A stretch of DNA of 64,000 nucleotides from Chrysomallon squamiferum. Taxonomy: Eukaryota > Animalia > Mollusca. Under the pieces are notes generated by a model. It was not told the origin of the DNA, ran no database searches, and worked only from the letters and a program-made list of their open reading frames with translations. How positions within the stretch are numbered: position 1 is the first letter of the stretch; every line of letters begins with the position of its first letter. Shown in pieces: positions 20,966-30,529 of the stretch. The DNA lies in the NCBI GenBank assembly GCA_012295275.1, contig CM022677.1, positions 17,112,001 through 17,176,000 of the forward strand, read 5' to 3'. A program made the position numbers and the translations under genes.

Positions 20966-21349
20966 TACCAATGTCCGAGCCCACTTTGTTCTGCAGAACC
21001 TTCTCGATGGAATGCTGAGGAAGCAGCAGGTGAAACTCGTAGCTCAGCTTCTTCTGCTTGCTGTAGTTCACCAACGACGACGTCGCCAGATAGCAGAACC
21101 TCGGCACGACGTTGTTGTGCGCGTCGCCCACGTATATGAGCAGCAGCCGCGTCCAGTTGTAGTAGCTGAGGATCGTGTGCACGGAGACTGCGAGGGTGTT
21201 GAACGTCATCCCCGTCCTGGTCAGAGTGGAGAACTCTTTCGTTTTGTCCTCGCCGAAGTCGTGCGCGAATCCACCCGGGGAGAGGACGGGTATGTTCCAG
21301 TACACGGCATACCTCGACACTGGGGCTAGGGAGTAGTCGCATACCGGCC
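20966..21349 (-). CDS. Second coding exon of the same NPR-like receptor (ANF-receptor ligand-binding domain); 384 nt, phase 1-1
   Basis: Acceptor TTCCAG| (AG at 21351-21350). Joining to the previous exon restores G+GG=Gly, giving FLGPVCDYSLAPVSRYAVYWNIPVLSPGGFAHDFGEDKTKEFSTLTRTG...YNWTRLLLIY...PRFCYLA...KVGSDIG. This matches the NPR-A/B/C pattern FLGPxCxYxxAPVxRxxxxWxxPxLTxG...E(Y/F)xxLTR. Donor A|GTGAGT (GT at 20965-20964). Strong GC3 bias; N-glycosylation sequons NWT and NYS. Whether the full gene has a cyclase domain or is NPR-C-like cannot be seen here. Confidence 0.95.
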
Positions 21350-23531
21350 CTGGAAGTTATTTTTCAGGGTGGGGTGGTGTTATTTGTGTTAGCCATGTGT
21401 TATATTACATTTATTAAACTTTTTTTAATTTTGTTTTTTTCTGTTCGTTGAGGGGTTTTTTTTGTATATAAAATGTTTGGTGAATCTGTTTAAGTTAGAA
21501 ATGTGTAATTATAGTTTATTATTTCTGAGAGAAAGACAAAAAGACAAAAAAGAATGGAAGAAAGAAGTAGAATGGAAAAAGAATGAAAGAAAGAATTTAA
21601 AAAAAAAGAAAGAAAGGATTTAAAAAGAGAAAAGAAAAATGGAAATATATATTTAAGAAAAAAAGACGATCGAACGAAATTTTCGACATCAAAAGTAATA
21701 ATAATAATAATAATAATCATAATAATAATAATAATAATAATAATAATAATAATAATAATAATAACATAACAGGATAGGATAGGACAGAATACGTTAATCA
21801 ACATTTATTTGTCAACCTGTACTAAACCTGAAATCTCTCACACTCCTTTCACAAACTGATTATTTTCTGATATTATATATTATATAAATGTATGTATGTG
21901 TGTCTTTGGGTGATGGACAGATATGTGTGTTTCATTTATCTGTGTGTAAAATGATTTTAAAATGTGTTAAATGGTATGATATGAGTGTCTCAAATCCCTT
22001 GACAAATTAGACAATTAATCAAATAGATATAAAGAATAGAATAAATAGTGTGAACATATTGCTTTTCTAAGTATAGATGAAGTATTAATAGTCTAACAAG
22101 ATTATCTAAACCCTCCAGTTATTATTTAAATTTTAAGAGTTCCATATCGCTCAGAACAAAGATTCACAATAAAAAGTAATAATATTTTTATAATTACATG
22201 ACAACGTCATTTTATCCTTAACAGCTCTAATTGTGACGTCACCGGATTTGAACAATATGTGGTGACGTCATTATATATAAAATGGCGGCAAAGAGATATT
22301 CTTTAAATATACTTTTTTTGTTTTTGTACACACTAAAATAGAATAAAAATTAACTGGGAAAAGGCATCTAGTCTACTTTTTATTGTATTGTATTTTTTTG
22401 TATCACTGAAGGTAATTTTTCAAAAACCTTTTACGAAAATGCTCAGTGACTAACCATAAACGATCTATTATAGTTTCTTTACACCTTCAGTGCATCGTAT
22501 TTGCTTCGTACATATGGTTAAATACTGTTTTACTAATACATAAACGCCACCCTATTACACGAGTGCAAATATCTTTTGATTAACGAAGATATATAACATG
22601 AAAGCACCTTCCCATAAACCGAAAGGAAATTGACGTAAGAAAATTGACTGTACGGGTAAAGTGAGGTGAACTGAGACAAACTGACCCTTCGACCTTTAAG
22701 CTGGTTAGAGATATCTCAAACAGCAAAACAAGAAATCCCCAAATCGTTTTCTACATTCTTTATTCCAACGAAGAAAGATTTGTTTTGTTTTCTGTGCAAC
22801 GTTGGTCATTCTAAACAACATAAATCAGATAACAATATGATTATAATTGCACATAGCCTGTAGTAGAAGAAGTCAGTGTACTTCTTCTGTACGTATGTCA
22901 TTCATAACCACACTGTCCGTCTGTCCGTAACAAAAGATAACGAATCGTCAAAGCCATCTTGTTTTATCTCGCAAACAACACAGAGTAAATTACTTGAACA
23001 CGTGTTTAGGTTTCCGCTAACTTGGGATCTTGTGTTTTATCGCAGATTGAGACGCTACCAGGCTTTTTTTTTTTTTTTTTTCTTCTTTATTATTATTTAT
23101 TCTACGCGATATTAACTAAAACACGGCTTATCATCTTTTGCTTTTACCATACGTGAGTCGATTAATTTTTTTACACGGATATCAAGAGATAAGAAATTTA
23201 ATACCAAGTTCCAAAAACAGCTTTAATATTCATTTATCTCGTCTTTTCACTTTTCTCAACTTTTTTCTTTAGTTTTTTATTTTTTATTTTCTTTCTTTTT
23301 TCTCTTTAGAATTTTTTTTTTCTCCTTTATGTTTTATTCATTTTCTTATTATTATTATTTTAAACGGTTTTCAAGGACGGCTGATAAAAAGCTGATAAGA
23401 GGCGTGAAGAGTTATGAGATTATAAAACATAAACAAATTTAAACTAGAAAATAAACAGAAGTGCGAAGATTAGTTTCATTTCCAAAAGTAGGGAACAATT
23501 TTAAAAAAGAGAGGAAATAATAATGACTGAA

Positions 23532-24010
23532 TCTCTCTCTCTCTCTCTCTCTCTCTCTCTCTCTCTCTCTCTCTCTCTCTCTCTCTCTCTCTCTCTCTCT
23601 CTCTCTCTCTCTCTCTCTCTCACACACACACACACACACACACGAGCGAATGCATACACGATTCCACATTCACAGACCACACACACACATATCTACCTCT
23701 GTGAAAAAAAAAATTGTTATCGTTGTTTTAACAAGTCAGTTTAAAATATGCATTAAACCAGCTGACCTCTCTAAATCTGGAAAGCCACCCACTCCGTTTT
23801 ATCTGCGGCCATACTTTGTAAGTACTATTTATAGACTGCTGAATTCCTACCTTTACCCTCGTTAGCCTTTAGCACATCTGCGATTTAAAAATATACTCAG
23901 AGAAATTAGTTAAGACAAGAACACTCTCTCTCTCTCTCTCTCTCTCTCTCTCTCTCTCTCTCTCTCTCTCTCTCTCTCTCTCTCTCTACCCTTCTATCTC
24001 TCTCTCTCTC
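23532..24010. repeat. (TC)n tracts (23532-23621 followed by (CA)n; 23925-24010)
   Basis: Directly visible; they read (GA)n in the pre-mRNA. Confidence 0.9.
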
Positions 24011-25654
24011 TACCCTTCTATCTGTCTCTTTATCTTTCTTTCATTCAAACATACACATACACATACAGACAACACACACACACACAATCACTCTGCCTCT
24101 GTTTCTTTTTTTCTTTTTCTTAATCTATATTTTTGCCTCCTCACCGTTAAGAAGACTTAGATACAAAAACAGACACGGAAAAGTCCAAAGCAGATTCTTA
24201 GAAGGACTAAGTGTAAAACATAAGTTTCAAAACTGACTGATTATCTTATACACCTGTTAACACCCAGAAAAACTCTAATTTCAAAACAATCACATGCACG
24301 ATTTCAAAAGAAATGAAGTTCTTACATTTTGATACGCTATCAAACTAGTGGCATTAACTTTTTGTTCTCAGTATACTGAAGAATTAACCAAATCAGTTAA
24401 AACGCATAGTTGTCATTGTTTGTCGTTATCTCATATCTTAGAGTCCGAGGAATTCGGTTGCCACTTTTAAAGTGAATGTCACGCGACGACCTGTTCTGAT
24501 TGCTTGGACTTGCCGACCCTGTAAGGAACAACTCGTTATGTTTCTTAGAATGGAAGGTACTGCGTTCGAAACATGCGAGTGCTAGGAACTCTTTTAGTTT
24601 AAATACAGTGTTGATTTTAAATTTTTTATATTTAATTTTATTTATTTTATTTTATTTCATTTTTGTTTTTAATTATTATTATTATTATTATTATTATTAT
24701 TATTATTATTATTATTATTTTGTTTTTAAATGTTGTTCATTTCGTTTTTTGTTTTATTGACAATGTTTATTCATAAATATAAAATACAAACCAGATACTT
24801 TTATATCTTTAAAATAATGATAACCAAATACGATATACATTCTTTCTCACTATCGGAATAAATTTCAAAAATTCATCTTTCAGCACCATTATTTATTTGT
24901 CATACTTATTCGTCTTTCGTTATTTCTTAGTTATTCCCGTAACTACCATTTTTCCATAAGTAATAACACACCGAATCTACAATTACTGCAACGATTAAAA
25001 AGTGCGGGTGCACTTCGAACGCGGGTTCGCGTACATCGTATCGTGTGACACCGCCTTTAAAAGAAATTTCTAATTATTCGATTTATCAAATGAGTCTTTA
25101 CAAGTCTGACTATCACAGAGACGAGCTACTAGCGACATTTTCGCTAAGTCGCGACTCAGTTTCTCCCTGTTAGTCGTAATGGAAATTAATCCGAGCCTGC
25201 GGTGGTACTGGAAGCGATGTCTGTGTCTAAGTGTCTAATATTGGACAGTCCCAGCAATACGAGCTCGGAATCTGCGGGGTGAGGTGATATTTTTGTGTGT
25301 TTTTTTCACAGTGAAAAGATTTGAGTTCGACGCGAGTGTAAAACTAAAACAGAAAATTAAAAAAGTTGTTGTGTGTGTTGAAGTGAAATTTTATACTTCG
25401 CGATGTGTTTGAATACGAAAGGAATTGATGTTGCGAGGTTTTGATGTACACTGAACTACCTGTGTGTATATCGTGTATGAGTGTGTTTGTGTGTGTGTGT
25501 CTGTGTGTGTATTTCTGTGTATACATAGATAGACAGACACACAGACAGACAGACAGACAGACAGATAGATAGAGAGATAGAGAGAGAGATAGAGAGATGG
25601 AGAGATAGATGGGTAGATAGATCATATATAAAGTATGACAAGAAGTTTATCTGG

Positions 25655-29600: not shown

Positions 29601-29689
29601 ATTAAGCATAACAGAAAGATGTTTTGTTTTTTTCTACAACAGAAAGAAGGAATTAAAAAGAAATATATTTTATTTAATGACAGAAAGCA

Positions 29690-29940
29690 CCATTTTAATC
29701 TGAGGTTAATAAGGCTCATATTTTATTCAACGAAGAACTCATTATAGCAGCCTAGGTTATTATGCGTCATATTTTATTTTTACGAATTACTCTCAGTTTT
29801 ATTTAGCGTTATTACGGTCATATTTTACTTATCAAAGAACTCATAACAGGTACGTAATATTATTATGGGGTCGTATTTTAATTTAACGAATAATTTTCAG
29901 TTTTAATGTAGGGTTATTATGGGTTGAATTTATGGTTAAG
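29690..29940. repeat. Degenerate tandem repeat (about 50-60 bp unit, 4-5 copies)
   Basis: Recurring GGTTATTA.G.GTCATATTTTA.TT.ACGAA motif. Confidence 0.65.
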
Positions 29941-30529
29941 ATCAGTGCTGTTAACCAAAAAAAAAAAAAAAAAAAAAAAAAAAAAATTCACTGATCAAAT
30001 TAAAACACTAATAGTTCTCGTTTAGCAAGAAGAGTTCCTTTGTGTGCGCACTCCCGTAAACAGTAAAATACGTAAAACAATATATCTTGGGACAAAATGA
30101 TTTTTACATTTTAAATTGACTCTATACAGTCGTATGTCTTATAAGAAGAGCAAACACTGAAATCTAAATGAAATTTCTAATTCATTTTTTTTTTTTCTTT
30201 AAGATTATGATGAATGGTGAATTACCTGATGAATTTAGATTTTTGTGTATGATAAAATCTGTTTCTGTGTATGTGCCTTTATGTATGTATATAGTTGTGT
30301 GCTTTTAAGTGGCTGTGAGAGTGTCTGTACGTACGTGTTTAGTGGTGTGTGTGTGTGTGTGTGTGTGTGTGTGTGTGTGTGTGTGTACATAGTGTATGTA
30401 TTTCATGTTTTTTTTTTTCCTTCAACATTCTTTCATCAACTCGCAAAAACAGATCCTAAATGTAAAAAAAAAAAAAAAAAAAAAAAAAAAACTTCCAGTA
30501 ACTTCCAGGGCCGTTAACTCTGAACTTAC

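Follow-up and report, generated by a model that had tools for sequence, protein, structure and literature searches.

An intron of a mollusc natriuretic-peptide-receptor-like gene carries, near its donor, an antisense copy of its own 3' splice site: a candidate RNA clamp in a probably gained intron

Introduction

Can an intron be born with the means to control its own removal? The question is raised by a 9,180-nucleotide intron in a natriuretic-peptide-receptor-like gene of the mollusc Chrysomallon squamiferum, found on the minus strand of a 64,000-nucleotide stretch of DNA (assembly GCA_012295275.1, contig CM022677.1, positions 17,112,001 to 17,176,000 of the forward strand; this whole stretch is called here the window, and all positions refer to it). 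Close to its donor, the intron carries an exact 15-nucleotide antisense copy of its own 3' splice site. Flies, fish and humans have long-range RNA helices by which a splice site is concealed or brought within reach; the interest of the present case lies in how such pairs originate. Here the two arms sit at opposite ends of an intron missing from most homologues, and their layout resembles an insertion by-product.

Should the antisense copy of the exit junction have been templated at the birth of the intron, and should this scar have been retained as an RNA clamp that chooses the acceptor and been preserved across divergent snails, a direct path would lead from an intron-gain mechanism to a ready-made splicing switch; we regard this complete chain of events as rather unlikely. 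Conservation of the donor arm in relatives would make it a datable case of a splicing control element made together with its intron, whereas an arm that is not conserved would be the footprint of an animal intron gain, or a chance match, and of little import. The match itself is real and non-repetitive; the hint of conservation is indirect, and a function in splicing is a proposal drawn from sequence.

The intron start is antisense to its own 3' splice site

On the plus strand, positions 30499-30513 are the exact reverse complement of 21345-21359 (15 of 15 bases), as a first-pass annotation made from the letters alone had reported. In the transcript, the guide arm (30499..30513, minus strand) occupies intron positions +17 to +31 and is the exact antisense of the acceptor from -10 to +5, with a predicted duplex energy of -28.4 kcal/mol. 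The target arm (21345..21359, minus strand) consists of the last 10 intron bases, AG included, and the first 5 bases of the next exon. This placing of the arms, also proposed in the first-pass annotation, agrees with the intron borders given below, and the two additional pairs announced beyond one mismatch were found on the exon side (30515-30516), which brings the match to 17 of 18 positions. The tandem second partial copy was likewise present and, together with the start of a T-run (30484..30498, minus strand, intron +32 to +46), extends the complementarity to acceptor positions -15 to -1 at 14 of 15 bases, with a folding energy of -13.5 kcal/mol. This second copy is likely a slippage duplicate of the guide arm, since its match to -15 to -1 together with the T-run suggests one inverted copy of about 23 nucleotides followed by a 10-nucleotide slippage duplication. 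With as many as three mismatches allowed, the guide arm and the target arm were the only copies found in the 64 kb, in keeping with the earlier description of the match as non-repetitive, and the gene's other two splice sites in the window showed no complex match of at least 10 nucleotides of the same kind.

The intron borders were placed by tblastn searches with eight mollusc homologues, which identified an upstream exon ending at 30530 (...HMFLG) and a downstream exon starting at 21349 (GPVCDYSLAP...), each present as a single copy in the window. The intron (21350..30529, minus strand) runs from 30529 to 21350, is AT- and microsatellite-rich, has GT-AG borders (GTAAGT...TTCCAG) and is in phase 1, splitting the glycine codon of FLG|PVC. 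Its donor, AG|GTAAGT (30524..30529, minus strand), is a consensus 5' splice site and lies outside the duplex.

Probability of the match by chance

The analytic probability of such a match is 9e-7 to 5e-6 per intron. The first-pass value of about 1e-6 is thus fair for a single intron; it left out the number of introns searched. A rewired control was built from 376 donor-like and 1,235 acceptor-like sites of the window and 13 of the loci compared below (L014, a near-copy of L013, was left out), giving 418,034 pairs. Ten pairs reached 15 nucleotides, and two of these were of complex sequence, namely the present match and a pair of interspersed repeats. None of 5,000 shuffled donor windows paired as strongly (-30.6, compared to a mean of -13.8).

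These values bear on the possibility that a 15-nucleotide match fell by chance within reach of the introns of one genome, helped by the palindromic GGCC core and by the RAGTT/AACTT words common at splice sites. Consistent with it are the per-intron probability, the second complex pair of the rewired control and the 18 inverted, non-low-complexity matches of at least 15 nucleotides listed in the window, some of them nested and many derived from interspersed repeats. Chance would not account for the pairing that extends to 17 of 18, for a second copy that matches at 14 of 15, for the location in a likely gained intron or for an alignment from another organism that ends at the helix edge (see below), and we consider it an improbable source of the match.

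Inverted copies of interspersed repeats were seen at 19890-20100 and 51643-51865, at 17659-17861 and 39732-39814, and at 28335-28504 and 48813-48985; the last pair is 82% identical over 174 bases and has one copy inside the intron. A short tandem array at 7576-7857 has a 13-mer in common, in inverted orientation, with an acceptor-like site at 29939-29951 that lies behind a T-run in the intron.

Splice sites and predicted helix

The in-frame acceptor is weak, with a purine-interrupted tract of 11 pyrimidines in 20. A strong candidate decoy acceptor lies upstream (21525..21640, minus strand, the upstream boundary of the tract being approximate): its AG at 21526-21525 is at -176 and is preceded by 18 pyrimidines in 20, and no other AG occurs back to -468. 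Use of the decoy would give a stop 11 codons past the junction. A CTAAC at 21388..21392 (minus strand), which we take to be a branch motif, has its A at -40, outside the duplex, and no AG intervenes before the acceptor. As the downstream exon is 384 nucleotides long with phases 1-1, skipping it would leave the reading frame intact and delete 128 residues from the ligand-binding domain.

The predicted helix leaves the donor (+1 to +13) and the CTAAC motif free and covers the weak acceptor, and each arm is the other's best predicted partner across the whole intron. Co-folding of the arms, which are predicted to form the 15-bp duplex, gave a net energy of -18.7 kcal/mol without loop penalty; against this stand estimated costs of about 7 and 12 kcal/mol to open the local folds and of about 14 kcal/mol to close a loop of 9 kb.

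An 80-nucleotide (CT)n tract at intron +970 (about 29560) and long (AG)n tracts at +3906 to +6998 (26624-23532) could pair and so shorten the loop between the arms. A local hairpin in which the guide arm folds back on the donor (30497-30530, minus strand), and which would make a strand-exchange switch possible, was part of the minimum-energy fold but had no stability beyond that of shuffles (z-score -0.11) and is not claimed here.

The intron is absent from most homologous loci

The intron position was compared in 14 homologous loci, all taken from metagenome assemblies: 11 read through FLG-PVC without interruption, and the remaining three (L012-L014, two of them near-identical) have a different intron 16 nucleotides upstream. 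In 10 of the 11 continuous loci the next donor is visibly kept unspliced, so these loci are genomic. Read-through open reading frames (ORFs) matching the Haliotis paralogues P0004 and P0009 were likewise continuous at this codon. Of 188 proteins, 141 are continuous, although some are spliced models and therefore uninformative, and four break exactly after this glycine; for most of the 47 non-continuous proteins the end of the read-through lies 5-10 codons upstream. A quick tree search over 80 columns and 151 rows, for which the alignment filter retained 150 of 192 proteins, placed one of the four, P0050 (with P0189), in a weakly supported group with the present gene and P0048 (Shimodaira-Hasegawa-like approximate likelihood-ratio support 81). 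The remaining three belong to distant paralogues, which means that the AG|G site was hit repeatedly or that an old intron was widely lost.

The intron thus occupies a new position in an otherwise continuous coding sequence, with the caveat of the same-codon breaks in 4 of 188 proteins, and these comparisons make a lineage-restricted gain likely. Lineage-specific intron gain has been documented in gastropod hemocyanin genes (PMC7931591). In the receptor gene, introns have entered this short region at several positions.

The first-pass annotation had proposed an intron-encoded guide that docks the donor to the acceptor or occludes the latter. The geometry described above, with donor and branch motif free, the weak acceptor covered and the arms as mutual best partners, fits this proposal; what it had missed is the intron's absence from most homologues, which makes an origin as a scar of intron gain possible. 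Such a scar could also be neutral: in the course of an intron gain or of a later template switch, break repair or an element with short terminal inverted repeats (TIRs) would have placed an inverted copy of the right junction near the left one, with no role in splicing. The lack of the intron in 11 of 14 loci, 10 of them visibly genomic, agrees with this, as do the frequency of TIRs in newly gained introns and the layout of the copy, which extends across the junction and has a tandem repeat behind it, as is seen in insertions made by templated end-joining (PMC7407515). If taken for an element, CTGGAAGTTA...TAACTTCCAG has GGCC on both flanks. However, templating falls to near zero about 30 bp from a break (PMC7407515), so that a single capture event or an originally short intron would be needed, and the 17-nucleotide donor segment between exon and repeat is unlike a simple insertion. 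The 10-nucleotide repeat with its GGCC flanks can be read as a TIR with target-site duplication, but it lies 17 nucleotides off the upstream exon instead of abutting it. No multicopy family was seen either: the window holds no further copies, no sequence-similar introns were found at unrelated sites in the 64 kb, and a single record of DNA run X2 covers the intron end (21328-21390). Moreover, decay of a neutral copy would be expected if the intron is older than the split from the source of run X10, described below. We hold a purely neutral scar to be unlikely.

Two further insertion readings were rejected. A long target-site duplication is not indicated, as 4,278 of 5,000 shuffles equalled the longer direct repeat of the junction; for a TA-flanked Tc1/mariner element, the repeat would by reasoning have to supply the conserved G-P-V codons.

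Independent sequence at the two arms

An independent individual carries the same acceptor arm, which is unchanged in contigs of the DNA run X2 and the RNA run X6. The X2 contig spans 20950-21560 (611 bases) with substitutions at 21120 and 21309 and a gap at 21420, leaving the arm untouched. The X6 contig, the only RNA contig at the site (depth 2.9), spans 21121-21403 with two substitutions, both outside the arm, and is unspliced across the acceptor to about -70. Run X5 was without the main contig on this side. On the donor side (30484-30845), no contig was obtained from X2, X7, X8 or X10, a result that is uninformative since the contig filter drops contigs.

This missing coverage is what could be held in favour of the view that the donor arm, next to a homopolymer of 28 bases, is an artefact of assembly or polishing. 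Yet the whole upstream exon, which homology demands, is equally missing there, and the acceptor side agrees with X2 throughout apart from the three differences listed. Assemblers are not known to introduce an inverted 15-nucleotide copy of a sequence 9 kb distant and at the same time leave the donor perfect. An artefact is by far the least credible of the explanations considered.

Record 3 of run X10 (organism B) aligns to 21261-21359 with 15 differences in 99 positions and ends exactly at the outer helix edge; the changes visible in it are those expected of a peptide resembling that of P0048, and so is the point, directly ahead of a D/N difference, at which it stops. An intron-less homologue would match at most 4-6 of the 10 intron bases and never the terminal one. 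For a generic acceptor, the probability of an alignment extension of at least 10 nucleotides into the intron is 0.001-0.07, depending on scoring and given an assumed acceptor matrix. Because the alignment runs 10 bases into the intron, organism B would appear to have the intron, with nearly the same bases at -10 to -1 including the anti-consensus A at -9. This may be a weak hint of constraint on the acceptor arm. If the intron is that old (the nearest named homologue is 54-56% identical), a neutral 15-mer would survive with a probability of 0.0006-0.05, assuming 0.2-0.5 changes per site.

Traces of the guide arm were also sought in relatives. The arm was not found in the read-through peptides of the four representatives breaking at the codon, and a compatible back-translation at +4 in the distant P0102/P0190 is not evidence for it. 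A word search for G-P-G-S, the arm as it would appear in relatives' exon-1 read-through peptides, retrieved none.

Possible masking or bridging of the acceptor

The reading that we favour, with a probability of roughly one in three, is that the arm was retained as an RNA clamp that masks the in-frame acceptor and so brakes splicing to the downstream exon. Insertion of the intron would have produced the arm, an inverted copy templated by the new junction, which selection would then have preserved. The helix would form once the acceptor is transcribed, aided by a donor end held near the polymerase or the spliceosome, and would put the AG and what remains of the pyrimidine tract out of reach of U2AF, leaving the U1 site and the branch point accessible. 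The RNA would then be kept unspliced, be diverted to the decoy, leading to a premature stop and decay, or skip the 128-codon exon, until the helix is unwound.

The same helix might instead be under selection because it aids splicing, by bringing the donor to the weak in-frame acceptor past the decoy, with no need for a pyrimidine tract, and being unwound before exon joining. The weak tract, the strong decoy with its premature stop and the free donor and branch motif are all consistent with such bridging, and a helpful clamp accounts more easily than a mask for retention since the birth of the intron. In zebrafish, pairing of (AC)m and (GT)n repeats within introns obscures the tract, dispenses with U2AF2 and suppresses a cryptic acceptor (PMC4691745), and in Drosophila weak acceptors with cryptic ones nearby are over-represented among introns that contain conserved stems (PMC2724269). 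By contrast, the AG and five exon bases are here buried in a GC-rich helix, and the one RNA contig, from X6, is unspliced at the site. Stems that include the acceptor suppressed it in the tested cases, Drosophila Atrophin (PMC2724269) and human ATE1 (PMC7797038), and the arms of human pairs of conserved complementary regions (PCCRs) are depleted at active splice sites and enriched at inactive ones (PMC8052449).

Two considerations thus come from published stems, the repression by those that contain acceptors and the avoidance of active splice sites by conserved human arms. A third is that introns with a weak tract require the AG for U2AF binding. For these reasons we prefer masking to bridging, which we hold to be possible though unlikely. 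That some selected RNA helix exists, be it masking or bridging, seems to us slightly better than an even bet.

Several points weigh against the masking reading. Multiplying 1e-6 to 5e-6 by an assumed 150,000 introns gives 0.1-0.7 such matches per genome by chance, so the statistic alone is compatible with chance. After opening and loop costs, the net folding gain is about 0 to -9 kcal/mol, which makes the structure marginal: it needs tethering, and it could be tuned. In a newly arisen intron, the masking of a required exon would have been costly. The X6 contig, single and shallow, could represent a retained intron, decoy-spliced RNA, ordinary pre-mRNA or DNA. The donor arm is known from this assembly alone, and the X10 evidence is indirect, consisting of an alignment end only. 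Finally, P0050 and P0189, the nearest relatives breaking at the codon, cannot encode an antisense junction in their first 54 intron bases, assuming that the next exon starts with Gly-Pro; it should be noted that P0050 is a long-branch copy.

Comparison with known systems

The closest likeness is to the acceptor-masking pairs of flies and humans (Atrophin, PMC2724269; ATE1, PMC7797038; PCCRs, PMC8052449), in which an intronic arm is complementary to a stretch at the 3' splice site and a weak acceptor has a competitor nearby. For ATE1 the R1/R3/R4 arms were compared; its R2-R5 pair spans 30 kb, so that the kilobase distance found here is within the known range (PMC7797038). As for PCCRs and the Raker box, two arms form a stable predicted helix (15 of 15 pairs, -28.4 kcal/mol, mutual best partners), with a net gain that is marginal. 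The published arms are conserved and were tested by compensatory mutation, whereas the present match is known from its letters. The present arm also differs in lying 17 nucleotides from the donor of its own intron, in targeting a core coding exon that has no other in-frame acceptor and in belonging to an intron missing in most homologues.

The zebrafish (AC)m-(GT)n hairpins (PMC4691745) are similar in that the two ends of one intron pair over a poor pyrimidine tract. They differ in being made of repeats; here the sequence is unique and GC-rich, and the helix takes in the AG and exon bases. The intron does have a 42-nucleotide AC tract at +144, but the nearest GT tract of at least 8 units is at -2294. 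The Dscam exon-6 docking and selector sites resemble the present arms as an element just past the donor pairs with acceptor sequence 1-12 kb away (PMC2724269). The Dscam analogy drawn in the first-pass annotation nevertheless fails on its defining feature, as there is one target and no array of alternative exons in the window.

On the side of intron origin, introners and introns derived from miniature inverted-repeat transposable elements (10.1101/2022.06.06.494994, PMC12130899, PMC11282704) and the symmetrical introns of Hypoxylaceae (PMC8469720) share with the present intron a new position, inverted repeats near the ends and a 3' repeat that gives the AG. Compared with introners as reported there, the 5' repeat lies 17-21 nucleotides inside, the 3' repeat enters coding sequence, no sister copies were seen, and the intron is 9 kb long, the introner family medians being 30-654 nucleotides. 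Templated end-joining likewise produces short inverted copies of junction-flanking DNA, with iteration, but acts within about 30 bp around the break, against 9 kb here (PMC7407515).

Among the titles listed by a literature search that covered few subscription papers, none reported this arrangement for natriuretic-peptide-receptor genes or for molluscs. What is unusual is the combination of an intron's own donor end, its own AG, a core coding exon and a likely gained intron.

Exons and other features of the gene

The downstream exon (20966..21349, minus strand; GPVCDYSLAP...) encodes part of the ligand-binding domain: it matches the ANF-receptor ligand-binding domain PF01094 (E = 1.6e-10) and shares 61% identity with a receptor guanylyl cyclase of Haliotis rubra. 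It is followed by the donor of the next intron, GTGAGT (20960..20965, minus strand), at a position where the homologous loci also have a donor. The upstream exon (30530..30949, minus strand) comprises part of the 5' untranslated region, the ATG at 30827, a signal-peptide-like start and the first part of the ANF-receptor domain, and ends in ...HMFL-G(1); its PF01094 match (E = 4.5e-4) is below the cut-off of that family. Its best match is P0048, a RefSeq model of Gigantopelta aegis, with 56% and 54% identity over the two exons.

Beyond these two exons, no convincing tblastn match to the eight mollusc homologues was found in the 64 kb, and no further exon for the transmembrane, kinase-homology or cyclase domains was detected within the 21 kb of the window that lie downstream. 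No homologue of the gene was found in the prokaryote genome collection, and Rfam gave no match over 20000-32000. Many mollusc gene models (P0002, P0006, P0015, P0037, P0039, P0048) end at the same exon end as 20966, three of them from one Patella caerulea assembly with neighbouring locus numbers. The missing third exon and the shared model ends could mean that the next intron is very long, that a short soluble form exists or that these are 5' cassettes. A scheme in which variable 5' cassettes join common constant exons was unsupported, as the full-length Haliotis paralogues P0008 and P0012 differ to the last residue and have no constant region in common. In its 5' part, the upstream exon also holds a 25-codon upstream ORF (30849-30924, minus strand), which ends before the main ATG.

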